Assembly (NCBI GenBank): GCA_001771575.1
Contig: MEUD01000001.1
Location: 415,277-479,276 of the forward strand
Length of the DNA: 64,000 nt
Direction: 5' to 3'
From: a candidate division WOR-1 bacterium RIFOXYB2_FULL_45_9
GTDB lineage: Bacteria > Margulisbacteria > WOR-1 > O2-12-FULL-45-9 > XYB2-FULL-48-7
Each line of letters starts with the position of its first letter. Within the stretch, counting starts at the first letter, position 1. The notes under the pieces are model-generated. The model did not search any database. It was given only the letters and a program-made list of their open reading frames with translations, and was not told the DNA's origin. The position numbers and the translations under genes are program-made. Below, piece after piece: positions 9,414 to 31,687 of this stretch.

Positions 9414-10434
9414 TGATTATTTCTTGGGCCGCTTCCGGTCTGGCCAACCGGCGGCAAGCCTCTTTCATTTGTTTTAGATCAAGGGAATCGTTGACCAAAG
9501 AAGCGAATTTTTCCGGGGTCAGTTCGCCGTTCTTGACCAGCACCCCAGCTCCCGCCTCTTCCACGACCCGGGCGTTAAGGTCCTGATGGCCTTCGGCCGA
9601 ATATGGGAACGGAACCAGGACCATCGGCAAACCGCGGACCAAAAATTCAGCGATCGCCGTCGCCCCCGCCCGAGAGACCACCAGATCGGCCGCCGCAATA
9701 GCCTCGGCTATATTATACATGTATTCCACCGGTTTATAAAAAGGATATTCGCTTCTCTTTAAAAGAGGAAAATCGCGGCTCCCGATAATATGGACGATCT
9801 TTATCCCCTCTTTGATCAGAGGCAAAGCGGCGATCACTGCTTGATTAACGCTCCTCGCCCCCTGGCTCCCCCCAACGACCAGGACCATTTTGTCGCCTGG
9901 TTCACAGCCAAAGAGAGCGCGGCTGGCCTCCCGGTCGGCTAAAGCGATCTCTCCCCTGACCGGGTTGCCGGTGACGATTCCTTGAGGCAAATACTCCCTG
10001 GAGCGGTCGAAAGAAAGAAAGACCTTTTTCGCCCAACGGGCAAAAAGCCTATTCGTCACCCCGGGCAAAACATTCTGTTCATGAAGATAGATCGGGATCG
10101 AAAGAAATTTAGCGGCCAGGACGACCGGCAGGCTGGCATACCCTCCAGTGGAAAGCAGAACATTGGGCCGCTCGCGCACCAGATAAGCCAGCGCCTGAAA
10201 AAAACCGATCAAAGAGATGAACGGGGCGGAGAGAGCCTTGTAAGAAAGCTTGCGCAAAAGGGCCCGCGACTTGATCAATTTGATCGGGAAGCCGGCTTTG
10301 GCGATCAACCCTTTTTCCAGCCCTTCTTCGCTCCCGATAAAAAGGACTTTATTTTCCGGGATCAACTCCCGGGCGACGGCGATCCCGGGATAGATATGCC
10401 CGCCGGTCCCGCCGGAAACTATGACGATCTTCAT
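9397..10434 (-). CDS. murG: undecaprenyldiphospho-muramoylpentapeptide beta-N-acetylglucosaminyltransferase
   Basis: 345 aa with N-terminal SGGTGGHIYP, a GT28 signature. Confidence 0.9.
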   Translation of the reverse strand: MKIVIVSGGTGGHIYPGIAVARELIPENKVLFIGSEEGLEKGLIAKAGFPIKLIKSRALLRKLSYKALSAPFISLIGFFQALAYLVRERPNVLLSTGGYASLPVVLAAKFLSIPIYLHEQNVLPGVTNRLFARWAKKVFLSFDRSREYLPQGIVTGNPVRGEIALADREASRALFGCEPGDKMVLVVGGSQGARSVNQAVIAALPLIKEGIKIVHIIGSRDFPLLKRSEYPFYKPVEYMYNIAEAIAAADLVVSRAGATAIAEFLVRGLPMVLVPFPYSAEGHQDLNARVVEEAGAGVLVKNGELTPEKFASLVNDSLDLKQMKEACRRLARPEAAQEIINAIRF

Positions 10435-11522
10435 GCGGCCCCTTTCCTGGAAATATTTAAGATCACGCCGACCGCGAAAAGGTTGATGATCGTTGCCGTC
10501 CCACCGTAGCTAAGGAACGGCAAGGGGATCCCGGTCGTTGGGGCCAGACCGACCACCACCATAATATTGATCAGCGCCTGGGTCGACAGCCAGGCGACCA
10601 GGCCGGTCGCCAAAAGGCATTTGAACGGGTCTTTCGCTCCCAGCGCGATCAGAAAGCCGCGGTGAACAAAAAGGACAAAGATGGCGATGGCCAAAACTGC
10701 ACCGATAAAGCCGGTCTCCTCGCAATAAATGGCAAAGACAAAATCGGTGAACTGCTGGGGGAGATAAAAAAACTTCTGCCTTGAAGCGCCAAGCCCCAGG
10801 CCCATAATGCCACCCGACCCGACGGCCAAAAGGGACTGGATGATCTGGAAACCGATCCCCTGCGGGTCCTGCCAGGGGTCAAAAAAAGCGACAAACCTTT
10901 TTAAGCGGTACGGCGTGGTCACTCCCAGCACGATCACTCCGGCAACCGCCGCCAACCCAAGGAAAACGAACTGCGAATACTCCATCCCGGCGACAAAAAG
11001 CATGGCGAAGACTGACCCGGCCAGCGCCAGGACCGTCCCCAGGTCGGGCTGTTTAATGATCAGGGCGGCGACGAAAGCGAAGATCAATAAAGCCGGCAGG
11101 ACCCCTCTCATAAAATTGCCGATGTCCCCTTTTCTTTCCGACAGGAGCCTGGCCAGATAAACGGTCAAAGTAAATTTAATCAGCTCCGAAGGCTGAAAAG
11201 ATATTATCCCCAGATCGATCCACCTTGAAGCGCCGCTGATGTTATGCCCGATCCCGGGAACAAAGACCAGGACCAAAAAGAAGAGAGTGACCAAAAACAG
11301 ATGGAAAGAATAATTTTTCAGCTTGACCAGATCGAGACGAAATCCATAGTAACCGGCGCCGACCCCCAGGACCAGGAAAAAGAGATGGCGTTTAATGAAA
11401 TAGAGCATGTCACCATGCTTTAGCCCCATGGTGGGACTGGCGGAAAAAATCGTCGCCGTGCCGATCGCGGAGAGGAGGATGACCGCCAGCAAAAACCAAT
11501 AGTCTATTTTAAGTTTTGGCAT
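10431..11522 (-). CDS. ftsW: SEDS-family peptidoglycan polymerase/cell division protein (FtsW/RodA)
   Basis: 363 aa polytopic membrane protein with SEDS motifs, located between murD and murG. Confidence 0.85.
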   Translation of the reverse strand: MPKLKIDYWFLLAVILLSAIGTATIFSASPTMGLKHGDMLYFIKRHLFFLVLGVGAGYYGFRLDLVKLKNYSFHLFLVTLFFLVLVFVPGIGHNISGASRWIDLGIISFQPSELIKFTLTVYLARLLSERKGDIGNFMRGVLPALLIFAFVAALIIKQPDLGTVLALAGSVFAMLFVAGMEYSQFVFLGLAAVAGVIVLGVTTPYRLKRFVAFFDPWQDPQGIGFQIIQSLLAVGSGGIMGLGLGASRQKFFYLPQQFTDFVFAIYCEETGFIGAVLAIAIFVLFVHRGFLIALGAKDPFKCLLATGLVAWLSTQALINIMVVVGLAPTTGIPLPFLSYGGTATIINLFAVGVILNISRKGAA

Positions 11523-12817
11523 AGCTCCTTGAAGACCCGTCCGCGCTCCTCATAGTTGCTGAACATGTCAAAGCTGGCGCACGCCGGAGAAAGGAGAACA
11601 ACATCCCCTTTTTCCGCCAGGCGATAGGCTTCACGGACCGCGTCCCCCATGGAAAAACCGGTCCGGTAAATATTGGCAAACTCGGCCTCGCGCAAAGCGG
11701 ACTCAAAACGGTCGGACGCCTCCCCGATCAGGACGACCGCTTTCACGCTCTCCTTGACCTTTTTTGCCAGCTCATCAAGGCTCACCCCTTTATCCCGTCC
11801 CCCCAAGATCAAGACCAGCCCCCGTCCTTTGAAGGTTTCGATCGCCACGAGGGTCGAATCGGGATTGGTCCCTTTGGAGTCGTTGTAAAACTCGATCCCT
11901 TTTTTCTTTCTGACAAATTCGATCCGGTGCTCCACTCCCGGGAAAGTTTTCAGCACCCGGGATATTTTTTCGTCTTTTATCCCGCAAAGCCGGGCCGCAA
12001 AGGCCGCCGCCAGCGCGTTCTCCAGATTGTGCCGTCCGGGGATCTTTATTTCGGTCGGGTCCAGGGTGATGATTTGAGCGGCGCGATCTTTCGCGAAAGG
12101 AGCAAGCCGCGCTTTGGCTCCCTGGACCATTTTCACCACCTGGGGATCGTCGGCATTGTAGACCAGGTGGTCGGCGCCGGTCTGATTCGAAAAAACCCTG
12201 GCTTTTTGGGCGATATATTCTTCGATCGTATGGTGCCTCTCCAAATGGTCGGGCTGAATGTTCAGGACAACGCTGATCCAGGGCTTGAAGTCGACGATCG
12301 CTTCCAGCTGATAACTGCTGACTTCGGCCACGACGTAATCCAACTTGGCATCATCAACCTCGATCAACGGGAGCCCGATATTACCGGCCACCGCGACCTT
12401 CTTCCCCCCAGCTTTGAGCATTTCACCGATCAGGGTCGTCGTCGTCGTTTTGCCGTTCGTTCCAGTGATGGCGATGATCGGTTTTGACAGAAAACGGGAA
12501 GCCAGCTCGATCTCCGAGATCACGGGAATTTTATTTTTTCTGGCCAGTTCAATGATCGGGATATCGAGATGGACCCCCGGACTGACCACTACCAAGTCTA
12601 AGCCTTCAACCAGCTCCGGAGGATGCTGGCCCAGTAACAGGCGGATCCCTTTGCTAGTTAAAGCTTCAAGCTGATCTTTTGGGAAAAGTTCTTCTTTTTT
12701 TGAGTCGGTCACCGTCACGACCGCTCCCAGTCCAGCCAGCTTAACGGCGGCCGAAAGTCCGCTTTTACCCAGTCCAACGATCAAGACCTTTTGGCCATTC
12801 ATGTTAATCGCTACCAT
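11504..12817 (-). CDS. murD: UDP-N-acetylmuramoylalanine--D-glutamate ligase
   Basis: 437 aa Mur ligase with GTNGKTTTT located downstream of mraY. Confidence 0.9.
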   Translation of the reverse strand: MVAINMNGQKVLIVGLGKSGLSAAVKLAGLGAVVTVTDSKKEELFPKDQLEALTSKGIRLLLGQHPPELVEGLDLVVVSPGVHLDIPIIELARKNKIPVISEIELASRFLSKPIIAITGTNGKTTTTTLIGEMLKAGGKKVAVAGNIGLPLIEVDDAKLDYVVAEVSSYQLEAIVDFKPWISVVLNIQPDHLERHHTIEEYIAQKARVFSNQTGADHLVYNADDPQVVKMVQGAKARLAPFAKDRAAQIITLDPTEIKIPGRHNLENALAAAFAARLCGIKDEKISRVLKTFPGVEHRIEFVRKKKGIEFYNDSKGTNPDSTLVAIETFKGRGLVLILGGRDKGVSLDELAKKVKESVKAVVLIGEASDRFESALREAEFANIYRTGFSMGDAVREAYRLAEKGDVVLLSPACASFDMFSNYEERGRVFKELCQNLK

Positions 12818-16097: not shown

Positions 16098-18962
<2,865 letters not shown>

Positions 18963-20635: not shown

Positions 20636-21143
20636 GGGGATATTATAACACCCGTTCGGAACCTGAGAATGAATTCTCGGTTCCTCACGAGAAACCGGTA
20701 ACTTTGCGGCTTATGACCAGGAAACCTGTCCCGATTGGATCGGGAAGTTTTCTTGGTTTTTCCCCTGTACGTATTTAGATATTTTGCTCTCTTTTACGCC
20801 TTGTCCATTTTCTTTGTCTGGCCACAAAGAAAATGGACGAAAAGAAAAGGCCTTACGCATTTCGACTTTTTTTAAGGTAAGCGAAATGCGTCGAACACTC
20901 TGAACTTATACCAGATATTTTTAATCTAAATGAAGGCAATAATCCAAACGGTTTTTCAGTTGAGAAGATCGGACATCGTTATTTCTGTTTGTCGCGATGC
21001 ATTTTTAGGTATGCACTCTTTCAATGGTTTTGCCTTTAAGCCCTGCCTTCTATGGAAAGGGGCTCCTTGAGTTGGCAGGGGCATTTTGAAGGGCCAGTTG
21101 CTAAAAGTCCAAAATTTGGTAAAATTAGAAATTGTATTGGCGT

Positions 21144-21216
21144 TCCCCGGTAGCGCAGTGGTAGCGCAGGTGACTGTTAATCACTTGGTCGTAGGTTCGA
21201 ATCCTACCCGGGGAGC
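21144..21216 (+). tRNA. tRNA-Asn (anticodon GTT)
   Basis: Manual cloverleaf: acceptor TCCCCGG/CCGGGGA, D-stem GCGC/GCGC, anticodon stem GGTGA/TCACT with loop CTGTTAA, T-arm GTAGG-TTCGAAT-CCTAC and discriminator G. Confidence 0.8.
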
Positions 21217-21218
21217 TT

Positions 21219-21248
21219 TTCTTTTTTGTCCCCAAAAAAGAAAAGCGG
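21219..21248 (+). terminator. A/T hairpin directly after the tRNA (CTTTTCTTTTTT-GTCCCC-AAAAAAGAAAAG)
   Basis: Perfect 12-bp inverted repeat immediately 3' of tRNA-Asn. Confidence 0.4.
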
Positions 21249-21541
21249 CAATTGCGTTCAGCAATTGGATTTTGCGAACCCCGGCGCTTGACGACGGGTG
21301 AGCAAAATCAAGGGTAGGATGAGAAAGGCGTTTTTGCGCCGAGCGAAGCGAGGATCAGCGAGCGACACTCCTGCCCTAGCAGGATGAGCGAGCGAAAGCA
21401 AAAACGCCATGTCCCGTAGTCGCCGCCCAAAGCGGCACGGAGGACGAAATCCTACCAGGGGAGGGCCGATTTTTTTTGATTATCTTCGAGAGTGTAAAAC
21501 TAGGCGCTACTCCCTGCCTGCAGGCAGGTTAGTATTACGGA

Positions 21542-21691
21542 CTATTTTCTAATTGCAAGTGGTCCAGTTTTTGGGGGGAAGGTCACCACAATATCGATAA
21601 TTTCCCAATAGATCCCCTGTTTAACCACAAATCCGCTCGCAACGAGCAAGGAAAGGCCGATGAGGAGCCAACCCTGGAGTTTATCGTGCAT
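21542..21691 (-). CDS. tiny single-TM peptide (49 aa) at the 3' end of the defence operon
   Basis: MHDKLQGWLLIGLSLLVASGFVVKQGIY... has one hydrophobic helix. An AAAGGA Shine-Dalgarno (SD) sequence lies 8 nt upstream, and the start is 2 nt after the stop of the upstream gene. Calling such a short ORF is uncertain. Confidence 0.25.
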   Translation of the reverse strand: MHDKLQGWLLIGLSLLVASGFVVKQGIYWEIIDIVVTFPPKTGPLAIRK

Positions 21692-21693
21692 AT

Positions 21694-22671
21694 TTAATCC
21701 TTTAATCTCTTTTTTGACACGGCACAAGCATCTTTTAATGATTTACAAGTGAATAAAGTATCCAACATGCACTTTAATCTCCCATTTGACCATATTTTGC
21801 CAATTGGCAATTCCTTTCTTGGCTCAAATGGTTCTCCCAAATATAATAAATAGTGATTTTTAACTTTACCTCTTTTTATCTCTGGGATTCGGCTATGCAT
21901 ATCAGCAACAATCTCATAAGATTTCACATAATGGATCGACTGCAATTTACCATCATATCTAAAACCCATATAATTGAGAGGTATTTTGGGCCAATTCTTT
22001 TCTGCTGGATAAAAGTAGAGGCGTTTTTTATTAATAACATCTCTCCAGGATATTTTTGACCATTTTGGTGTTTTATTCGATAGTGATACAACATAGACCC
22101 AATTAGATTCCTTGTTTTCCATTTGGACCTCCTCAAGCAAATATTTTTGCAGCTCTGATAAAAGATACTTTTCCTTATTTGATGCCTCATGGTAAATATA
22201 ATTAATTGTTTTAATCACATCATGCCAAGAAATTGACTTTATAGGAACCCCGCGAATTGATCGTTTTAAATTACCATTAAAATATTCTTCCGTGCAATCA
22301 CTGAGAACCAGAAACATTCTCTTGGTTCTCTTATAGCCGCCAAACCTCTCCCTGTATTTTTTGAGTTGGTCCAGGGTTGGCAAAGACCACCCCTTTTTTG
22401 CTTCTATGATACAAAAGAACCTATTATCAACAACAATTTCAATGTCCGTTATCCCCTTTTCCCCATGTTTTTGAAGACGAATAACAATATTATTGTATTT
22501 CATATCTCTGTTATACATTCGCTTGATTAAGGCTTTCACCAATCTTGGGACCCTTGCCATTGTATATCCCAAACTGTATGTTAAATCATTTTCACTAACG
22601 CCTAAAAGTTCAAATACGCTTTCAATTTGATCATCATTAATAGATATTACTGTTGATGGAGTTTTATTCAT
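21694..22671 (-). CDS. PD-(D/E)xK-like putative nuclease with an uncharacterised C-terminal domain, translationally coupled to hsdR
   Basis: 325 aa. The N-terminal segment GITDIEIVVDN...CIIEAKKGW fits the restriction-endonuclease-fold D...D/E-x-K motif. A 4-nt overlap with the hsdR stop and AT-rich codon usage link it to the island. Confidence 0.45.
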   Translation of the reverse strand: MNKTPSTVISINDDQIESVFELLGVSENDLTYSLGYTMARVPRLVKALIKRMYNRDMKYNNIVIRLQKHGEKGITDIEIVVDNRFFCIIEAKKGWSLPTLDQLKKYRERFGGYKRTKRMFLVLSDCTEEYFNGNLKRSIRGVPIKSISWHDVIKTINYIYHEASNKEKYLLSELQKYLLEEVQMENKESNWVYVVSLSNKTPKWSKISWRDVINKKRLYFYPAEKNWPKIPLNYMGFRYDGKLQSIHYVKSYEIVADMHSRIPEIKRGKVKNHYLLYLGEPFEPRKELPIGKIWSNGRLKCMLDTLFTCKSLKDACAVSKKRLKD

Positions 22672-25600
22672 GAGGCATACACGCTCTTTTCTGGGCCAGA
22701 ATACGCATCATAAACATGCTCATAAACTAACTCGCACTTCTGACTATAAACTGGCTTTGTGTATTTCTCGGGCAAATGGTCAAATACTTCATTTATCATG
22801 ACTTTGACCGCGGCCCTTGCCTCTTGTTTCTTGCGCCAATCGAGCACGAGCTTCTCTTGCTTTAGCTTTTCCAGCAGCTCTTTGGCCACTGCCTTGACTA
22901 CCCCCTCTTCTTTCTTGGTCAACTGCATGTCTGGCCTAGTTAAAATATCAAATACTGCTAATTCTTCTTCGGAAAGCCCTTCTGCGATAGTCCTCTTTTC
23001 TTCTTCGTTTAGCTGCTGGGCAAATTCGGTTAAACGTCTAAAGAATTCGTCAACGTTCATACTGCCGGCGTTATATTCATCGATCAATTTCTGAAACTTA
23101 TCCTGGAAGTCCAATCTGGTCCGGTTAAACCTGATCATTGTTCCTAAACGACGCTCAATCATCCCTTTCAGTTTTTCAACTTCAATATGCTTTCTCCCCT
23201 TTTCAAATTTGGCGCGTAAAGTCTCGAAGTCGATCTGGCTAAGATCGTAGATTCGGCTTTGCTCGGGCTTTTCGGCAATTACATAGCCTTCCGTGGAAAT
23301 CGATTCATCAAGAAGCTTATCGATCTCTTTCATCACTGCTGAAATGTCAGGCGGCGGCAATAACGATCGTATTTTGTTAGCGATAACTACGAATAATATC
23401 GCTAGTGGCGCTACCTCATGGGCAATTTTGTCCGGTAAGATAGCTTTGAATAAGCCATTAATCCGGGCAGCCATAACTAGGTAGGTTTTCTTCTGCTCTT
23501 CGGCTGCGATTATCATGTCCACCGCGTTATCAAGCAAGCCAACCTTAGCGAATCCTTCTGCGGCTAGGATTGCTTCAACATTAATCCCAAGATTCGAGCA
23601 GAATTCCGTTGTTTCTTGCAGTTGTTTCTTGAGAATCTCCACCAGCTCCGCCTTTTCGACAATTGGCGGCTCACCCGCTCCAGGGGTCGGCGCGTAGATC
23701 GCCAAAGCCTTTTGCAGGCTTTGGAAAACACCGACATAATCAACAATTAAACCGCTGACCTTGTCCTTAAAGACCCGGTTAGCCCGGGCGATAGTCTGCA
23801 TTAAAGTATGGTTGCGCATCGGCTTATCAAGATAGATGGTTGAACAGCTCGGCACATCGAAGCCGGTCATCCACATGGCACAGACAAAGACGATCCGGAA
23901 GGGATCGTTTGGATCCTTGAATTTTGTGGCTAAGTCTTCACTTACTATCCGGCGACGGTGCGGCTCGATCTCGACCCCCTTCTCCCGCATCTGGGCGATC
24001 TCATTTTGCGAAGAAGAGACCACTACAGCCATATCTGTCTCTTTAACATAGTTGATTAATTTTTCTAATGCGGCCCTCTCCTCTTCCGCAACCCCGCTCA
24101 ACTGCTTTTCCAACTCCTGCAAATATTCTTGCTGATATTTACGCACCTTATCGTACATTTTGACTGCCGTAACCTTATCAATCGCCACAACCATAGCCTT
24201 CCCTTTAAAGCCGCGGTTAAAGAAATGGCTTACTATATCTTTAGCAACTGTTTCCAGGCGATCGTTACGAGTAATAATGTGATATTGTCTGGCGAACTCT
24301 TGCTCCAACCGGGCTTGCTGGCGCTCATCCAGCTCAGCCGCTTCAACAATAGCGGCCATCTCATCATTTAAGCTTTCGTTTGTGAGCTGGACCTCGGGGA
24401 TTCGGTTCTCGTAATAGAGTGGCACGGTTGCCTTATCATCGATCGATTGCTTAAAGTTATAAACACTGACATATTCACCAAACACATCCTTGGTCTTCTC
24501 TTCTCCAACGATTAAAGGTGTACCGGTAAAAGCGATAAAAGAGGCATTAGGCAACGCTTGGCGCATGTTAAAGGCGAGCGTGTCATACTGGCTCCGGTGC
24601 GCCTCGTCCGTGATAACGATAATATCCGACCGCTCTGACACAACCCCCTGGAAGTTGAACTTATGGATCAGAGTAAAGATATAACGATGATTCTGACCCA
24701 ATAACTGCCGGAGATGGTCACCTGATTCGGCATGGATCTCTTGAGCAGTTATGGCGCCTGAATTGGCAAAGTTACCATAGATTTGCTCATCAAGCTCTTT
24801 GCGGTCAGTCACAATAACAAAGGTCCAATTGCCAGGGATCTTACGCAGGACTTTTTGGGCGAAAAAGATCATGGAAACGCTCTTGCCGCTCCCTTGAGTA
24901 TGCCAAAACACCCCCAGCTTGCCCTGTTTTTCCCTAATATCCTTAAATCCCTTAATAACGTTGTTGACGCCCAGATATTGATGGTTTTTTCCGATTAATT
25001 TAATTAGTCCGCCGCGAGATTGCATATAAGCGATATAGTTCTCAACGATATCAAGGAAGTTAGCCTTCTGACAGATCCCGCGGATCATCGTATCGAGGGA
25101 TATAACGCCTTGTTCGCCTTCACTATTGATCTTCTTCCAATCGGCAAAATGCTCCCACTCCGCAGTTATACTGCCAACTTTACTTTCGCTCCCATTGGAA
25201 AGGATAATAACGGCGTTATACCAGAATAGCTGGGGAATCGTGTTTTTATAATCGGTCAGGTTATCAATAAACGCGTTTTCTACCCGCTTATGTGCCGCTT
25301 TAAGTTCAATAAATAGTAAAGGGATACCATTTACAAACCCGACCAGATCAGCCCTTTTGGTATACATTTCACCGGTGACCCAGAATTGGGAAGCAAGGAA
25401 AAAGTCATTATTTTCGGACTTATCCCAATCGATAACTTTAACCGTTTCGGTCGTCTCTTCCTCTCGGCCTGTGGCGGGCATTGTAACGGGGACGCCATCC
25501 TTGAGCAGTTGGTAAACTTCCCGGTTGGCATTAACCAAGCTCATCGCACTCCGATCGCGCGTTATTTCTTCAATGGCCAGATCAATTGCTTCTTCAGTCA

Positions 25601-25796
25601 ATCCGGGGTTTAACTTATTCAAGGCGGGTCGTAGCCTTGAAACAAGAACAACTTCTCCCCGATTCTCCCGGCCCATAGTACTGCCGCTCGCCCGTTCGAA
25701 TTCTAGATAACAGTTAGCAGCTTGCCAGTTAAGATCTGTTAACAACCTGATTGTTGGTTGTTCAATTAATCTATCTTCCGAATAATGCGTTGTCAT
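22668..25796 (-). CDS. hsdR: type I restriction enzyme R subunit (helicase/endonuclease)
   Basis: 1042 aa with an HsdR N-terminus, Walker A (TQGSGKS), DEAH box (VITDEAHRSQ) and SF2 helicase C-terminal motifs. Confidence 0.9.
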   Translation of the reverse strand: MTTHYSEDRLIEQPTIRLLTDLNWQAANCYLEFERASGSTMGRENRGEVVLVSRLRPALNKLNPGLTEEAIDLAIEEITRDRSAMSLVNANREVYQLLKDGVPVTMPATGREEETTETVKVIDWDKSENNDFFLASQFWVTGEMYTKRADLVGFVNGIPLLFIELKAAHKRVENAFIDNLTDYKNTIPQLFWYNAVIILSNGSESKVGSITAEWEHFADWKKINSEGEQGVISLDTMIRGICQKANFLDIVENYIAYMQSRGGLIKLIGKNHQYLGVNNVIKGFKDIREKQGKLGVFWHTQGSGKSVSMIFFAQKVLRKIPGNWTFVIVTDRKELDEQIYGNFANSGAITAQEIHAESGDHLRQLLGQNHRYIFTLIHKFNFQGVVSERSDIIVITDEAHRSQYDTLAFNMRQALPNASFIAFTGTPLIVGEEKTKDVFGEYVSVYNFKQSIDDKATVPLYYENRIPEVQLTNESLNDEMAAIVEAAELDERQQARLEQEFARQYHIITRNDRLETVAKDIVSHFFNRGFKGKAMVVAIDKVTAVKMYDKVRKYQQEYLQELEKQLSGVAEEERAALEKLINYVKETDMAVVVSSSQNEIAQMREKGVEIEPHRRRIVSEDLATKFKDPNDPFRIVFVCAMWMTGFDVPSCSTIYLDKPMRNHTLMQTIARANRVFKDKVSGLIVDYVGVFQSLQKALAIYAPTPGAGEPPIVEKAELVEILKKQLQETTEFCSNLGINVEAILAAEGFAKVGLLDNAVDMIIAAEEQKKTYLVMAARINGLFKAILPDKIAHEVAPLAILFVVIANKIRSLLPPPDISAVMKEIDKLLDESISTEGYVIAEKPEQSRIYDLSQIDFETLRAKFEKGRKHIEVEKLKGMIERRLGTMIRFNRTRLDFQDKFQKLIDEYNAGSMNVDEFFRRLTEFAQQLNEEEKRTIAEGLSEEELAVFDILTRPDMQLTKKEEGVVKAVAKELLEKLKQEKLVLDWRKKQEARAAVKVMINEVFDHLPEKYTKPVYSQKCELVYEHVYDAYSGPEKSVYAS

Positions 25797-27112
25797 AATT
25801 GATTTACCATGTCATAGGAGGCTACAACATCCTTAATCTTATCTTCGCTGATTTTCTTTTCTCTTGCAAGCCTCATAACCCTCAAATGATACTGATTAAA
25901 TAATATTTTCTTCGATAATCTATTTAACCTGGCGATATATCTCACCCTTTGTCTTTTGTTTAACAAATCAAATATCTTGCCAAGATAATAACCACCTGCA
26001 TTCATTATGAATTTTTCATCAAGCACATTTGCAATTACCTTAGTTCGATATTTTGGGGCGAGCCCTGCGATATTGCAATTTATCATTCTTTTTAATATTG
26101 GGCTTCGTTTAAAGTCGACTCTTTTCCTAACTTTTTTCCTATACGCATCGTATGCCTTCTCAATGTCTTTGTGCTTTTTAGGGTTTTCCAATAGCTTAAA
26201 TATATCAAACGACCAATAATCGAAGAATTGCCTAGAAGTAAATAATTTTGCCTTACTAGCGTTAAGATTCAATCCTATCATTGCCAGCTTTTTTGATGCC
26301 AGAAACATGATCTCTTTTGCATCTTTTTCATTTTTTGATGCTATTATTTGATCGTCAGCATATCTTAGATACTTAGATTTCCTTTCTTCGCATATATCGT
26401 ACATATACTTGTCATATTCCTGAAGATAATAATTTGCTAATATTCTAGAACAATCCCCAACCTCATCTTGTGGTAATCCCGCACTCTGCTTCTCATAAAA
26501 CATATACTTTTTATTCCAATGCGATAAGAAATAAAATAGCAAATTAACATATTTAGTTTTCCGCTTGTCTACGGCTTCCCTTATTAATGCTTCCAATCTG
26601 TCCAGGCGTATTGAATCATAGAAGTTTGCAATATCAAATATAAAATAGTATTCATGATCTGATTTTGCATAGAGATTGTAAGCTCTCTTTTGATAATCAG
26701 TCCATGCACGTTTCCATGCAAATGAGTTGTAACTGTAATCTGGCATAGACACAATTTCGTCGTTATTTTCAATCTTCCGTATTTTTCCGCCTAATTTCCA
26801 GCCCCCATAGGTGCCCTTTACTCTATTTGCAGCTATTTCATCCTCAAGACTCTTAATACAATAATAGTAGACACAGTAGTCCTCTCTAGTAAGAGCGGGA
26901 ATAAAACGAACAACTAAATTCTCTTTATGTGATACAACAAATGTCCTGGGGGGAGATGGGGCATAAATCATTTTGTTAATCTTACCGACTAATTCCTTCA
27001 AGAATGAAATTCTATCGGGCGTCGAATCAGCGAATGGGCAATCGGTTTTATTGTGAATGTGCTTCCAGAATCTTTGCCCAACCACTTCGATAAAGTCGTT
27101 ATCTTTTAGCAT
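25793..27112 (-). CDS. reverse transcriptase (defence-associated, Abi/UG-like, non-retron context) embedded between hsdS and hsdR
   Basis: 439 aa with RT motif A (YYFIFDIANFYDSI), motif B (GLPQDEVGDCSRILANYYL), motif C (LRYADDQII) and a motif D/E region (IGLNLNASKAKLF). A basic helical C-terminal extension of about 140 aa follows. ATGA overlap with hsdR and a 20-nt gap to hsdS are consistent with translational coupling. Confidence 0.75.
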   Translation of the reverse strand: MLKDNDFIEVVGQRFWKHIHNKTDCPFADSTPDRISFLKELVGKINKMIYAPSPPRTFVVSHKENLVVRFIPALTREDYCVYYYCIKSLEDEIAANRVKGTYGGWKLGGKIRKIENNDEIVSMPDYSYNSFAWKRAWTDYQKRAYNLYAKSDHEYYFIFDIANFYDSIRLDRLEALIREAVDKRKTKYVNLLFYFLSHWNKKYMFYEKQSAGLPQDEVGDCSRILANYYLQEYDKYMYDICEERKSKYLRYADDQIIASKNEKDAKEIMFLASKKLAMIGLNLNASKAKLFTSRQFFDYWSFDIFKLLENPKKHKDIEKAYDAYRKKVRKRVDFKRSPILKRMINCNIAGLAPKYRTKVIANVLDEKFIMNAGGYYLGKIFDLLNKRQRVRYIARLNRLSKKILFNQYHLRVMRLAREKKISEDKIKDVVASYDMVNQL

Positions 27113-27132
27113 ATATATTCTTCTCTATCATA

Positions 27133-28296
27133 TTAACGATCATATATCTCTCTCCCTACCTCCCCGCCAATCAACTTCGGTAAAAGTAAATCGCGGGTTT
27201 GAACCAGAATTTTGTTCATGTTGACCAGGTTAGCCATCATTTGAAATGATATTGAAATCTTACCCTCAAAGTCATCTAATATTTCTCCAGGAATATCAAC
27301 GACTTCTAATCGCATTAGATCCTTTGGATAAACATGTGGTTGCGCCGCTCCTCTTTGAAAGTTGGTTACCTCATTTTGTCTATTTTTCAGCAACAAATAG
27401 AAATAATATAAGTATTTTGTGGTATTTCTATCAATAAAAGAGCAATCTGATGCCCAGATATCCTCATAATATATGTTTACATAGCCCGAGTTCGCTCCCG
27501 AAGCGCTAATCGTTATGACAGGAGCCTTTGTATTTGCCTTATTATGAAAATATGCCGGGCTTAACCCTCCAGCCACCACAGGAACTGCTCCCTCAATTAT
27601 TATCTCCCTGGTTATACTCTTGCCCTTTGCAATATCCACCTTTTCTCCTAATGTAATTACCTCCCACTTCTCCGGTATCTTCCCCAGCTTCGAATCAACC
27701 ATGTTCACCTTCTCATGCCCCGGAAAGCGGAAATTGACAAACCATTCGCTATAGATCATCTGCGCCATTTGTTCGATGATCTTTATCCGGCGGTTGTTGT
27801 TTTCGATCAGGTCGTCGTAGGCGGAAAGGATGGAGGCTATGCGGCGTTGTGTTGGGAGATCGGGGAAATTGATAACTAGGTCCTTAATTGATGCGATATC
27901 CGCACGTTGCCTACCAGATGCGCCAGCCATACTCTTTTCAGCGGGGCTTCTTATGGTTTTCGTAGTTGATAAATAATAAATATAATCTGGGTCAGAAATC
28001 GCTGATTTTGCTCTAAATACAAAGAATTCTGTCGAACCAAAAGCGGGGCTCCCTCTATATTGTGCAATTTTTCCATTCTCAAGACATGGTGTTATTCGGG
28101 CAAATAATGTGTCCCTGTCCTCAAATTTTGACCCGCCGCCTTTTAACTGTTTCTCTCCACTTGGGCTAACATACTTTGTTCCGGGTTGAATAGCCTCCAT
28201 CATAACAAATGGGTATTCCCCACCACGTTCCAGCTTTACTTTTGGATGAATTTCAACGCAATCCTCAAATCTTACTTTTCGCCAATTATTCTTCAT
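27133..28296 (-). CDS. hsdS: type I restriction-modification specificity subunit
   Basis: 387 aa with two target-recognition domains separated by a central conserved helix. It overlaps the upstream gene by 4 nt. Confidence 0.8.
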   Translation of the reverse strand: MKNNWRKVRFEDCVEIHPKVKLERGGEYPFVMMEAIQPGTKYVSPSGEKQLKGGGSKFEDRDTLFARITPCLENGKIAQYRGSPAFGSTEFFVFRAKSAISDPDYIYYLSTTKTIRSPAEKSMAGASGRQRADIASIKDLVINFPDLPTQRRIASILSAYDDLIENNNRRIKIIEQMAQMIYSEWFVNFRFPGHEKVNMVDSKLGKIPEKWEVITLGEKVDIAKGKSITREIIIEGAVPVVAGGLSPAYFHNKANTKAPVITISASGANSGYVNIYYEDIWASDCSFIDRNTTKYLYYFYLLLKNRQNEVTNFQRGAAQPHVYPKDLMRLEVVDIPGEILDDFEGKISISFQMMANLVNMNKILVQTRDLLLPKLIGGEVGREIYDR

Positions 28297-29315
28297 GGCC
28301 TTTGCTTAATATAATTATTAATCACTTCGTATACAGCGTTTGTATCTTTTCCTTCCAATCTTCCAATGTACCCTATTGGCATATGCTTAAACATTGCCTC
28401 TGTACCCTCCTTGATCATTTCAGATTTCGCTTCTGGCTCTGGATTAGTTGCAATATAATCCTGAAGGGTTTGCGCCACATTCCTTCTATGTGTGTTAATG
28501 GCATACATATTTGCATAAACGTTGTAATTTTTGGAAGCAAAACCCAGCCCATATGATACAACGGAAAGTAATGCCAACTTTGCTAATCCATATTCTAGAG
28601 TGAAAAAAGATTCTGGGCCAAAAACGATTATTCCAATACTTTTCATCATAAGAATACCAAAATACACGATAAAGTTAAAAGCGATGAGCCCTATTAAGAA
28701 CCAGAATGTTTTATCTCTATTGCCCAACCATTTCTCCATGCTCGCACGGTCTTCATTTGCCTGCTTTTCAAAATATTTGGCGAGAGTCACAGAGGCAATC
28801 TCGCCATGAGTAGTTTCGATTTCAGCCTTTTTTTGCTTCAAATTCTCTAGCTCATTTTGTAATTTTAGGGCTAATTCCTTGTAAACTATTTCCGCCTGCA
28901 CCGCCGCTTTTTGTTGTTTTTGCAGCTCTTCTTCATCCTTACTTTTTAATGCTGCTTCCTGTCTTAAATATACAAGGTTCGTTTTGGTTTGCTGAATCGT
29001 TTCGTTAGAATAACGCTCTATCTCTCCTTCCAACTGATCATGCAAAGGCTTGGGATTGGGATGGTTTAAATTAAAGCTATCGATTCTTTTTATATAATCA
29101 ACAAATCGTGTTTTTTTATTATCTATATCATCAATTTCGGGCTTCGATAAGATTGTTTTATACTGGAGTTCAGCAAATTCCCCAAATAAGCCCTGTAATC
29201 TAATCAAATATTCGGCGCTTTTTTGAAATTTTAATGCGCCATAATCATCCTTCATGGTTATCTTATTTATATCTATTTTACCTATTGAATCAATATCTAT
29301 ATTTTGTTCAGCCAT
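28293..29315 (-). CDS. coiled-coil protein with a C-terminal 2-TM hairpin, inserted between hsdM and hsdS (candidate abortive-infection/effector module)
   Basis: 340 aa. The N-terminal roughly 200 aa are strongly heptad/charged (QKQQKAAVQAEIVYKELALKLQNELENLKQKKAEIE). Two hydrophobic helices follow (FWFLIGLIAFNFIVYFGILMM and LAKLALLSVVSYGLGFA). A strong SD (GGGAGGG) precedes the start. Confidence 0.5.
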   Translation of the reverse strand: MAEQNIDIDSIGKIDINKITMKDDYGALKFQKSAEYLIRLQGLFGEFAELQYKTILSKPEIDDIDNKKTRFVDYIKRIDSFNLNHPNPKPLHDQLEGEIERYSNETIQQTKTNLVYLRQEAALKSKDEEELQKQQKAAVQAEIVYKELALKLQNELENLKQKKAEIETTHGEIASVTLAKYFEKQANEDRASMEKWLGNRDKTFWFLIGLIAFNFIVYFGILMMKSIGIIVFGPESFFTLEYGLAKLALLSVVSYGLGFASKNYNVYANMYAINTHRRNVAQTLQDYIATNPEPEAKSEMIKEGTEAMFKHMPIGYIGRLEGKDTNAVYEVINNYIKQRP

Positions 29316-29350
29316 TTTGCCCTCCCATTCATACTATTCGCCAGTGGGCC

Positions 29351-30853
29351 TTATAATCCCTTTTTTAATATAAGGCCGATATTATGCGATATTTTCTTTT
29401 CCAGTAGGTGCGATTCAGCATTTAGTTTTTCGAGCTCACCATTCAATCCTATGATTTTTTCCTTGAAGTCGTATTCTTCAGTCGGCCTTTCGGCGACTCC
29501 AACATATCTCCCCGGATTTAAGCTCCACCCCTGCTCTTCGATCTCCTTTAAGGTTGCCACCTTACAAAGGCCCGGCTTATCCTTTAACTTCCCTTGCCGG
29601 TATTGTTTGACCAGCCCGGCCAACATTTCAATCTGTTCCGGCTTAAAATCACGCAAAGCCCGGTTTATCTGATTAAAGGTGTTTCGGGCATCGATAAACA
29701 AGACTTTATTCTTAAGCGCCTTATCCTTCTCCTTATCAAAGAACCAGAGAGTCACTGGGAGTGTGACAGTATAAAAGAAATTAGACCCAACAGAGACGAT
29801 CACATCAACATGGCCCGATTTAATAAGCTGTTTGCGTATTTCCATTTCAGACGAACGGGCATCAGCCGCAGCATTCGACATAACAAAACCTGCCCGCCCC
29901 TTACTATTCAACGCACTGTAAAAGATCTGGATCCAGAGATAATTGGCATTATCTACGGTTGGTAGGCCAAACGGGAACCTTGGGTCGCCCTTAAGACTTT
30001 CAATGTCTACCCGATTAACATTAAAGGGAGGATTAGCCATCACATAATCGAACTTGCCGACACTTTTATGAATATCTTCTTTATAAGTGTTAGACTCACG
30101 GATATCACCTTCCAAGCCGTGAACCGCCAGATTCATTTTGCACAGCCTTACCGTCTCTTTGGTCTTTTCCTGCCCGTAAATGGATATTTCAGCGCTCGGC
30201 TTCTTCTTCCGCTCTTCGACAAAGCGTGCACTCTGGACAAACATACCGCCCGAGCCGCATGCTGGGTCTAAAATCTTGCCATGGAACGGCTCAATTATCT
30301 CAACGATTAGTTTAACAATAGATATTGGGGTATAGAACTCGCCCCCCTTCTGCCCTTCCGTCATCGCAAATTCACCCAAGAAATACTCATATATCCGGCC
30401 CAGCGTATCCCCATCATGCTCCATCGGGATTGAAGCCATTAATTTAATCAGCTCAATTAAGACCTTTTTATCAAGCTGGTTGTAGTTCCTGGGCAAAACG
30501 TCTTTTAAAGATGGGTTTTCTTCCTCGATCGCCTTCATCGCGGCATTGATAGCCTTGCCTATATCGCTACCTTCCTTTAGTTTTGACAAATAGTCAAACC
30601 TGGCAATTTCCGGCAAATACATTACCCCTTGCGCTTGATAATCTGCCTTGCCAATTGTGCGCCGGCCGGTCCCTTTGCTCGCTAGCTCTTTCTCGACAAT
30701 AGTAAATTTATGGTCAGCGTATCTCAAAAAGATAAGACCCAAGACAGGCGTGGAATATTCAGATGATTTCAGGTGCGAGTTAGCGCGCAGTTCGTCGGCA
30801 GCATTCCAGAGTCCTTTTTCAAGATCGGCTAGATTGTTTTCAGGTTCAGGCAT
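29351..30853 (-). CDS. hsdM: type I restriction-modification DNA methyltransferase subunit
   Basis: About 500 aa N6-adenine methyltransferase with NPPF (VMANPPFNV) and a SAM-binding motif. The start is assigned to the second Met (MPEPENN), which is preceded by AAGGAGG. The ORF-track start at 30883 lies in the promoter palindrome. Confidence 0.9.
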
Positions 30854-30865
30854 TTTGGGCCTCCT

Positions 30866-30913
30866 TATTCTAATTACAGGCATTTAATTAGAATATAGAT
30901 ATTTATATTCTAA
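30866..30913. promoter_or_regulatory. candidate operator/promoter upstream of hsdM: perfect 10-bp inverted repeat TTAGAATATA-N6-TATATTCTAA plus a third half-site
   Basis: Read directly from the sequence at 30888-30913. An additional TATTCTAAT half-site sits at 30866-30874, just upstream of the SD. Confidence 0.4.
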
Positions 30914-31177
30914 TCATCTAAGATCACGTTCTTATTTTACGCTTAGAATCAGGAAAAGCAAGGGAGATTAGCGGGGGAAAGGGACTGAGGGACTAAGGGA
31001 TAGCTAAATCCGACTGATCGTTAGACTTAACCTTATTTACACCCAAATAGCTCTTTTCGCCAGAGGTGCGGGGGAGGCGAAAAGGTAAGGAACTAAATAA
31101 TTTCTGACTCTCTAGCCGCATAATACATTCCCCCCTTCCTTGCCCCCCTCCCCCAAATAAACTATACTTAAATCAGC

Positions 31178-31687
31178 ATGTACAACATCATCGACTCCAT
31201 AAAAACTTATCTGCTCTCTAATGGTATGGAAATAGTAATCGACCTGCTGATCCTGGTCATCGGCATCTGGGTGGCTAAAGTCGCCTCGAACATCACCAAG
31301 AAGGCGATGATCAGATCAAAAGTTAATCAAACCCTGGCCCTTTTTGTCGGCAACGTCGTATATTACGCCATCGTAATTTTTGTGGTCCTATCTTTCCTGG
31401 AACGACTGGGGATAAAAACAACTTCATTTCTCGCCCTGATCGGCGCGGCCGGTCTGGCGATCGCACTGGCCTTGCAAGGCTCCCTCGCAAACTTCGCGGC
31501 AGGGCTCATGATCATCATGTTCCGCCCTTTTGAACTTGGGGATAAAATTGAAACGGTCGGCGTCTCCGGCGTCGTGGAAGAGATCCAGATCTTTAGCACC
31601 GTCCTCATAACCGCTGATCATAAACGAAAGATCATTCCGAACTCCAAGATAACCGGCGACGTCATCTCCGTGGAGATCAAACACTAG
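31178..31687 (+). CDS. MscS-family mechanosensitive channel-like protein (short form, 169 aa)
   Basis: Three TM helices with the pore-lining Gly/Ala-rich TM3 (LALIGAAGLAIALALQGSLANFAAGLMII) and the start of the beta domain. It is shorter than canonical MscS and lacks the C-terminal alpha-beta domain. Confidence 0.55.
   Translation: MYNIIDSIKTYLLSNGMEIVIDLLILVIGIWVAKVASNITKKAMIRSKVNQTLALFVGNVVYYAIVIFVVLSFLERLGIKTTSFLALIGAAGLAIALALQGSLANFAAGLMIIMFRPFELGDKIETVGVSGVVEEIQIFSTVLITADHKRKIIPNSKITGDVISVEIKH

Follow-up and report, generated by a model that had tools for sequence, protein, structure and literature searches.

The window analysed here, a stretch of 64,000 nucleotides (nt) of contig MEUD01000001.1 from candidate division WOR-1 bacterium RIFOXYB2_FULL_45_9, carries a reverse transcriptase (RT) gene at 25793..27112 on the minus strand, between hsdS and hsdR of a type I restriction–modification (R-M) operon. 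By sequence comparison, its 439-amino-acid (aa) product is a full-length, intact member of the UG13b group of the UG/Abi reverse transcriptases, and the gene is exchangeable cargo in a variable hsdS–hsdR slot rather than being hard-wired into the restriction enzyme. The reading preferred here, with a probability of roughly 0.65, is that the protein is an autonomous single-protein defence polymerase, which would make untemplated single-stranded DNA (ssDNA), likely primed from a tyrosine, and would abort infections that escape restriction. This role is proposed by analogy with enzymes of the same fold class.

Family assignment, active site and fold

A Pfam search of the 439-aa protein returned RVT_1 only (E=1.8e-13, 51 bits against a cutoff of 29.6). 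Maturase, endonuclease, HEPN and integrase domains were not found in this search, in agreement with the original prediction, which had been made from the letters of the window. The best match among the PADLOC profiles is RT_UG13b (E=2.6e-149), which aligns residues 3-437 with positions 2-428 of a 430-position model. The runner-up is UG21 (3.3e-34), followed by UG13a, Drt8, UG19 and UG9. The protein had been assigned to the Abi/UG class of defence RTs, and profile searches had been proposed to fix its clade; these give RVT_1 and, over the full length, UG13b, and the class is sustained both by the RT_UG13b match and by the whole-protein folds of Abi and DRT (defence-associated reverse transcriptase) enzymes described below. 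An identical protein is recorded as a hypothetical protein of candidate division WOR-1 bacterium RIFOXYA12_FULL_52_29. At E<1e-10 there are 770 homologs, nearly all of 435-460 aa, and the best relative is 59% identical.

The three RT motifs that had been quoted for the ORF (open reading frame) are present on the minus strand, and they are followed by the C-terminal domain:

26609..26644, minus strand: motif A FIFDIANFYDSI (residues 157-168), catalytic D160; D160, N163 and Y165 invariant in 59 homologs
26423..26479, minus strand: motif B region GLPQDEVGDCSRILANYYL (residues 212-230); D216, S222, R223, L225, N227 and Y229 invariant in the 59 homologs
26342..26365, minus strand: motif C RYADDQII (residues 250-257), catalytic D253 and D254; R250, D253 and D254 invariant in the 59 homologs
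25796..26215, minus strand: C-terminal helical domain, alpha-repeat-like (residues about 300-439); nine helices (302-438) with a predicted local distance difference test score (pLDDT) above 90

An inactivated palm had been named as an outcome that would speak against the proposal; since D160, D253 and D254 are all invariant in the 59 homologs, the palm is intact. Residue 251 of motif C varies within the group, with YADD in 53 and FADD in 26 of 79 UG13b sequences.

The AlphaFold2 model of the RT, built on the alignment of the 59 homologs, has a pLDDT of 89.7 and a predicted template modelling score of 0.87, with one disordered loop at residues 120-137. The helical C-terminal extension of about 140 aa that had been anticipated is predicted with high confidence to be all-helical. 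In Foldseek searches against the PDB, whole-chain matches were obtained with DRT4 (9vdv, 9vdo), UG15 (9l9s), DRT6 (9wy8), Abi-P2 (7r08), AbiA (8oz7) and AbiK (7r07), the best of them with template modelling (TM) scores up to 0.62 at about 15% sequence identity. The sequence profile of the family reaches the UG15/DRT4 chains over residues 251-433, a stretch that runs through the C-terminal domain. Compared with the UG13b group as described (PMC9226505, PADLOC PDLC03750), the window RT has the same length (about 430-440 aa) and the same plan of an RT with a helical C-terminus. It shows no protein-level difference from that group, and its slot and exchangeability in a type I operon are the added context.

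Operon layout and junctions

The operon consists of six co-oriented minus-strand genes, from hsdM to a PD-(D/E)xK-like gene. The RT lies between hsdS upstream and hsdR downstream in the same orientation, and hsdM, hsdS and hsdR all have complete domain sets in Pfam and PADLOC:

29351..30883, minus strand: hsdM, type I methyltransferase subunit, operon gene 1, backbone (Pfam N6_Mtase 4.4e-90 and HsdM_N; PADLOC MTase_I 1.5e-213)
28293..29315, minus strand: cargo gene 1, 340 aa, in the hsdM–hsdS slot; coiled coil and hydrophobic helices, without a Pfam or PADLOC match
27133..28296, minus strand: hsdS, specificity subunit, backbone (Pfam Methylase_S in two stretches; PADLOC Specificity_I 6.6e-72)
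27113..27132, minus strand: 20-nt spacer from hsdS stop to RT start, with a purine-rich GAGAAG stretch (from reading the sequence)
25793..27112, minus strand: UG13b RT, 439 aa, ATG start, cargo gene 2, in the hsdS–hsdR slot (RVT_1, RT_UG13b)
22668..25796, minus strand: hsdR, restriction subunit, backbone (HSDR_N, SWI2_SNF2, T1R_D3-like and T1RH-like_C; REase_I 1.7e-184)
21694..22671, minus strand: cargo gene 3, 325 aa, PD-(D/E)xK-like; D76, E90 and K92 invariant; start overlaps the hsdR stop
21633..21649, minus strand: terminator-like hairpin past the last gene, the probable operon end (from a consensus scan only)

The TAA stop codon of hsdS is followed by the 20 nt TATGATAGAGAAGAATATAT and then by the ATG of the RT, and the RT stop and the hsdR start share the tetranucleotide ATGA, an overlap of 4 nt. 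The co-orientation with the hsd genes and the spacing of both junctions are as originally predicted. ATGA overlaps also occur at the junctions of the 340-aa gene with hsdS and of hsdR with the 325-aa gene. It is most likely that the RT shares a transcript with the hsd genes and is coupled to them in translation.

The backbone and cargo genes differ in guanine-plus-cytosine (GC) content. It is 44.7% in hsdM, 45.8% in hsdR and 41.8% in hsdS (50, 51 and 42% at third codon positions, respectively), compared with 34.8% in the RT, 35.8% in the 340-aa gene and 33.7% in the 325-aa gene (33-36% at third positions). The RT is thus about 10 points below hsdM and hsdR, and the GC content of the whole window is 50.8%.

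Exchangeable cargo in the hsdS–hsdR slot

The five closest HsdR relatives are 86, 76, 68, 67 and 66% identical, against 59% for the best RT relative, and their operons hold other genes at the hsdS–hsdR junction. The content of the slot varies among these related operons (locus labels with coordinates within each locus; x, unassigned gene; CBASS, cyclic oligonucleotide-based antiphage signalling system):

L083 (21-5241): hsdS / CD-NTase / Cap15 / hsdR, i.e. CBASS in the slot
L084 (4457-12147): hsdM / Bro-N / hsdS / DUF4238 / hsdR
L086 (2417-10966): hsdM / 188 aa / hsdS / 275 aa / DUF3800 / 158 aa / hsdR / GIY-YIG-RAMA
L087 (237-11677): hsdM / x / AbiEii-WYL / x / x / hsdS / AAA_15-OLD TOPRIM / hsdR
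L088 (1378-12162): hsdM / hsdS / five genes / hsdR

The operon family with the HsdR T1RH-like_C domain has two hypervariable cargo slots, hsdM–hsdS and hsdS–hsdR. In L084 and L088 the final cargo gene shares 4 nt with the start of hsdR, just like the window RT.

At the nucleotide level, the window matches these operons over hsdM, over the conserved centre of hsdS and over hsdR nearly from start to stop; the identity of hsdR to L083 is 78% over 25770..22678. No nucleotide homology to the operons of the relatives was found over any of the three low-GC genes. RTs that are 86-97% identical in nucleotides sit in differing neighbourhoods, and their homology ends within a few bases of the ORF ends. 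It is confined to the RT ORF in the following loci:

L058, 1907-3308
L060, 1097-2497
L005, 7122-8448
L006, 3431-4757

Because homology between close RTs stops at the start and stop codons, the mobile unit is precisely the single RT ORF. The foreign GC content, the other cargo in the operons of HsdR relatives, the lack of RT nucleotide homology there and the mostly R-M-free homologs, which show that the RT also occurs non-embedded, together identify the RT as exchangeable cargo. The earlier idea of an RT hard-wired into the type I operon does not survive the proposed comparison of synteny in related genomes, as the closest hsdR relatives hold other cargo at the junction and the RT has a low GC content. 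A tblastn search against phages gave no match for the RT, and the same search against plasmids gave three distant partial RTs only.

Short repeats near the RT in loci L058-L072 led to an integron-cassette explanation of the single-ORF mobility being considered. In L067, a block of 42 nt (9923-9964 and 16328-16369) occurs upstream and one of about 240 nt (11376-11615 and 17546-17822) downstream of two genes about 6.2 kb apart, the RT (9983-11374) and a SEC-C-motif gene unrelated to it (16370-17533). The SEC-C-motif gene is directly preceded by a divergent gene for a LexA-S24-DNA methyltransferase fusion, and a Vsr gene lies between the RT and a similar fusion gene. The downstream block of L067 recurs as short copies in L058, L060, L061 and L072. 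The same flanks around different genes may be shared regulatory or recombination sequences.

Association with restriction–modification genes

The frequency of R-M neighbours was assessed in 82 related RT loci, two from a single-protein contig scan and 80 from an alignment-based metagenome scan. A locus was counted as R-M-linked when a phmmer seed for Hsd or type IIG proteins matched no more than two genes away from the RT and on its strand. At least 15 of the 82 loci are R-M-linked, and 67 are without an R-M neighbour by these seeds. When RTs are grouped at 85% identity, 11 of 53 groups are linked, and these are distributed over at least eight parts of a neighbour-joining tree, where unlinked groups lie among them. 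The linked loci show the following arrangements (M, S and R, methyltransferase, specificity and restriction genes):

S-RT-R: L015/L073, L062
RT-R, 5' side cut off: L030
M-S-R-RT: L001, L074; one extra gene before the RT in L009
R-M-S-RT: L066
M-S-fusion-RT: L058, L061; a long methyltransferase directly before the RT in L072
type IIG-RT: L003, L005, L082
S-RT: L050

The count of 15 is a lower bound because the seeds missed type II contexts in at least three loci: L067, L064 and L012 lie next to Vsr and DNA methyltransferase genes (L064 and L012 by shared gene clusters), and in L067 the type II cluster that contains them also has an NgoFVII-like restriction gene. The linkage of UG13b with R-M genes is recurrent and non-obligate, with about four fifths of UG13b genes not beside R-M genes. 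Apart from R-M genes, no other gene family recurs beside the RT in the 82 loci. Further neighbours are of the defence-island type and include HNH, EVE-HNH, Mrr_cat-nSTAND3, trypsin-like, AbiEii, DUF4268, RhuM and Fic genes.

The six-gene layout of the window is repeated in L062 (6213-15745), which reads hsdM / RhuM / hsdS / UG13b RT / hsdR / Fic; other cargo occupies its first and last slots, and its RT is 37% identical to that of the window. The window HsdR is 51-53% identical to the HsdR proteins of L030 and L062 and 62-86% identical to many RT-less relatives. Since it is nearer to the latter, the capture of the RT in the window looks independent of the other S-RT-R loci. L030 and L062 share related RTs (62% identical) and HsdR proteins (68%), which implies that the S-RT-R arrangement can persist once formed.

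These observations bear on the possibility that the RT is functionally tied to the restriction enzyme in the manner of PrrC and EcoprrI. In such a case it would be held latent by the R-M system or would sense it and fire upon phage anti-restriction, or it would use the DNA ends or ssDNA generated by HsdR. PrrC itself, an effector embedded in and silenced by a type I R-M system, is a precedent. The spread of R-M-linked lineages over the RT tree, the tight junctions (ATGA or gaps of -11 to 9 nt) and the one lineage pair that appears co-inherited are in keeping with a tie of this kind. However, the unlinked majority includes RTs that are 88-97% identical to R-M-linked ones. The partner varies between two type I families, M-S fusions, type IIG and type II systems, and the position varies between S-RT-R, R-RT, S-RT and IIG-RT, so that a specific protein contact is disfavoured. 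Moreover, closer hsdR relatives hold unrelated cargo in the same slot, and PrrC, unlike UG13b, is almost always R-M-linked. A functional tie is therefore judged unlikely, and no support was found for the earlier suggestion that the RT acts on products of HsdR translocation or cleavage.

A looser variant would make UG13b enzymes preferential partners of R-M systems of any type, namely guards that fire when a phage disables restriction or when unrestricted DNA replicates. It would explain the repeated independent capture into type I, IIG and II operons with tight coupling, and it would amount to PrrC-like logic run by a DNA-synthesising enzyme; it is regarded as quite unlikely.

The neighbourhoods are also relevant to a non-defence cellular role, such as DNA repair of the kind known for the G2L4 RT, in which case the gene would be a mere neighbour of R-M. 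The G2L4 RT is among the fold matches, and the UG13b group is without a recorded phenotype. However, the G2L4 alignment spans 320 columns and leaves the C-terminal domain uncovered, and the RT gene has a patchy distribution, moves as a single ORF and occurs among defence-type genes. In Mestre et al. 2022 (PMC9226505), UG13b is predicted to be defensive because some homologs are operonized with known defence genes or flanked by them on both sides. Taken together, this makes a repair role highly improbable.

Absence of a detectable partner RNA

The 20-nt upstream gap and the overlapping downstream junction leave no room for a partner RNA beside the RT. An Rfam scan of 21000..31500 at E<=1 returned only the transfer RNA (tRNA) and two chance-level matches. 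No conserved non-coding DNA was found in the 400 nt beside the RT when 46 upstream and 51 downstream regions from dereplicated loci were compared, and in many RT relatives the flanking gaps are shorter than 60 nt. The statement that there is no space for a retron- or DRT2-type RNA is confirmed by these results. By sequence, the RT is without a detectable partner RNA, which agrees with the Class 1 enzymes discussed below, and the adjacent structured non-coding RNA that is the hallmark of retrons, DRT2, DRT9 and DRT10 was not found at the window RT.

It could nevertheless be supposed that the RT copies an RNA template, as retrons, DRT2, DRT9 and DRT10 do, and that this template is encoded elsewhere or inside a neighbouring coding sequence. 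Sequence-only searches of the PDB and NCBIfam do rank RT domains of group II introns, retrons and DRT2 best, and a template inside an mRNA would escape sequence analysis. These matches are limited to palm and fingers, however. The NCBIfam models for group II intron RT/maturase, retron, Drt2 and Drt3a match the palm only and far below their cutoffs (75 bits against 300 for the group II model TIGR04416, 42 against 390 for Drt2), and in Foldseek the group II intron, retron and DRT2 RTs match only the RT core. Whole-protein folds are those of the untemplated Abi, DRT4 and DRT6 enzymes. In addition, there is no intergenic space, no Rfam match and no conserved flanking DNA, and homology between close relatives stops at the ORF borders. 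Copying of an RNA template is accordingly considered very unlikely.

The same evidence bears on whether a selfish retroelement, such as a group II intron, left the RT behind as a remnant or passenger without a defence role. The low GC content and clear horizontal origin would fit such an element, and the best NCBIfam match, although weak, is the group II RT/maturase model. Against it stand the lack of a maturase (X) or endonuclease domain in Pfam, of an intron RNA in Rfam and of a TIGR04416 score above cutoff. The ORF is fitted exactly between genes with overlapping stop and start codons, the active site is conserved, the 770 homologs have a steady length of about 440 aa, and defence genes are the neighbours. 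A selfish retroelement is therefore an extremely improbable source of the gene.

Proposed mechanism and candidate priming tyrosine

The preferred reading, an autonomous UG13b defence polymerase, is modelled on enzymes of related architecture. According to Mestre et al. 2022 (PMC9226505), UG13b was created by splitting UG13. There, Class 1 comprises RTs fused to an alpha-helical repeat (alphaRep) domain and is exemplified by UG21, UG19, UG9 and UG23, nine groups are named in the text as Class 2 with UG13b not among them, and Class 3 consists of hydrolase fusions longer than 1000 aa. The window RT has the Class 1 trait of a C-terminal all-helical repeat domain, and its 439 aa with RVT_1 as sole domain do not fit the size and domain content of Class 3. 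UG13b is placed in Class 1 because of its alphaRep-type domain, its absence from the list of Class 2 groups and its unlikeness to Class 3. An abstract describes Class 1 DRTs as catalysing untemplated synthesis.

One model is DRT4 (UG15), a hexamer which constitutively makes random ssDNA primed from Tyr125 (PMC12783706). This ssDNA is cleared by a host 3'-5' exonuclease; the T5 protein ORF55, which is similar to single-stranded DNA-binding proteins, protects it, and its build-up kills the cell (PMC12783706). DRT6 acts like DRT4 (PMC12783706). Both resemble the window RT in the plan of an RT with an alpha-repeat domain and in having no partner RNA (TM 0.57-0.62, E of about 1e-10 to 1e-11), but they are only about 15% identical to it, are about 50-100 residues longer and were studied as stand-alone genes. 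AbiK, Abi-P2 and AbiA (PMC9508834, PMC11077055), which make protein-primed random DNA, have the same fold class as the window RT; the UG13b protein is shorter, is 14-18% identical to them and lacks the HEPN domain present in AbiA. Known priming residues are Tyr44 in AbiK and Tyr61 in Abi-P2, both in a fingers loop, and Tyr298 or Tyr303 in the linker between RT and alphaRep.

The best candidate for a priming residue in the window RT is Tyr50:

26963..26965, minus strand: codon of Tyr50, putative priming residue, proposed from conservation and loop position

A tyrosine occupies this position in 79 of 79 and in 56 of 59 homologs from the two sequence sets (135 of 138), with F or W in the other three of the 59. 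In the AlphaFold2 model it lies in loop 47-56, between helix 34-46 and strand 57-62, an N-terminal loop comparable in position to those of the AbiK and Abi-P2 fingers-loop tyrosines. The next candidates are Tyr206 and Tyr299, and Y50, Y206 and Y299 are each more than 78% conserved. The situation differs from that of DRT4, whose Tyr125 is in the palm; the matching region of UG13b is the disordered loop 120-137, without a conserved tyrosine.

A sequence of events can be proposed on this basis. Its nested, translationally coupled position would mean that the RT is produced every time the restriction enzyme is, and both defences would be expressed and transferred together. The RT would then synthesise untemplated ssDNA primed from its own tyrosine, for which Tyr50 is the best candidate. 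A phage protein would stabilise this ssDNA, which would become toxic or sequester phage factors, and the infection would be aborted, providing a second layer against phages that escape restriction. Such a second defence layer beside restriction had been suggested earlier, and by analogy it is rated the most likely role.

Several considerations weigh against this reading. We infer the enzymatic activity, the priming residue, the trigger and the abortive outcome by analogy, and for activity and phenotype the analogy spans about 15% sequence identity. No experimental study of any UG13b enzyme was found in the literature searched. The assignment of UG13b to Class 1 is by similarity and exclusion. 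No tyrosine outside the catalytic motifs is strictly invariant in both sequence sets. Finally, gene spacing is the single ground for co-transcription, and promoter and terminator scans of the region gave a number of sites near chance level.

Relation to known embedded defence genes

The original prediction considered an RT within a type I R-M operon to be an architecture that is not well described. This assessment has to be revised, since defence genes in type I operons have been systematically published. Examples are prrC within the EcoprrI locus, tgvAB inside the type I system of Vibrio cholerae VPI-2 and rloF inside a Campylobacter type I system. Payne et al. 2024 counted 17,432 non-redundant genes that lie inside BREX, DISARM and type I R-M systems, of which 96.7% are co-oriented, and proposed the principle of 'guilt by embedding'. 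The only DRT mentioned in the main text of that paper is one embedded instance of DRT type III.

The window operon resembles PrrC-EcoprrI, TgvAB and RloF in that a second defence gene is nested co-oriented among hsd genes. It has three such cargo genes, and the cargo of its relatives includes CBASS, AbiEii and OLD-type genes. PrrC is almost exclusively R-M-embedded and is regulated by an R-M protein, whereas UG13b is mostly stand-alone; a near-obligate linkage of the PrrC kind was not found among the UG13b loci and lineages counted above. The case is one of a known RT group in a known genomic arrangement and fits published concepts. Neither an RT within a type I R-M operon nor a recurrent association of UG13b with several R-M types was found described in the literature searched. 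Where the AbiA paper mentions hsdR and hsdS, it does so in strain genotypes.

The operon family shows type I R-M as a carrier, in which an RT, CBASS, an OLD-type nuclease or other genes can occupy one junction. The window RT is a compact, naturally operonized representative of UG13b and a good candidate for testing. If it behaves like DRT4 or AbiK, untemplated protein-primed synthesis would be extended to another RT group and to candidate phyla. A functional R-M linkage would add a new case in which one immune layer guards another.

Other cargo genes and genomic setting

The 340-aa protein (28293..29315) has an all-helical model with a long coiled coil (helix 88-226) and hydrophobic helices. 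Its family is small, with 49 homologs, three of which give borderline matches to NNH7, a NACHT N-terminal helical domain. The protein itself has no Pfam, PADLOC or NCBIfam family and no significant PDB fold match. In another type I operon (L089), a homolog of 46% identity likewise occupies the hsdM–hsdS slot, and a further one stands alone beside hrcA-grpE-dnaK (L090). The 340-aa protein is possibly a defence or effector protein of the embedded type, as yet uncharacterised.

For the 325-aa protein (21694..22671), the family comprises 832 cluster representatives. The PD-(D/E)xK designation given earlier is supported by the invariance of D76, E90 and K92 in 32 homologs, four of which match Pfam PDDEXK_4. 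It shows no homology to the DUF4268 gene located after hsdR in L030. Both cargo proteins were considered as partners of the RT and rejected, as homologs of them are absent from all 82 RT loci.

Past the 3' end of the operon, a tRNA-Asn(GTT) gene is found at 21144..21216 on the plus strand. The GC content falls from about 50% to 34-46% over 21.5-31 kb, and this drop, together with the adjacent tRNA gene, suggests that the entire R-M block is an island beside a tRNA gene.

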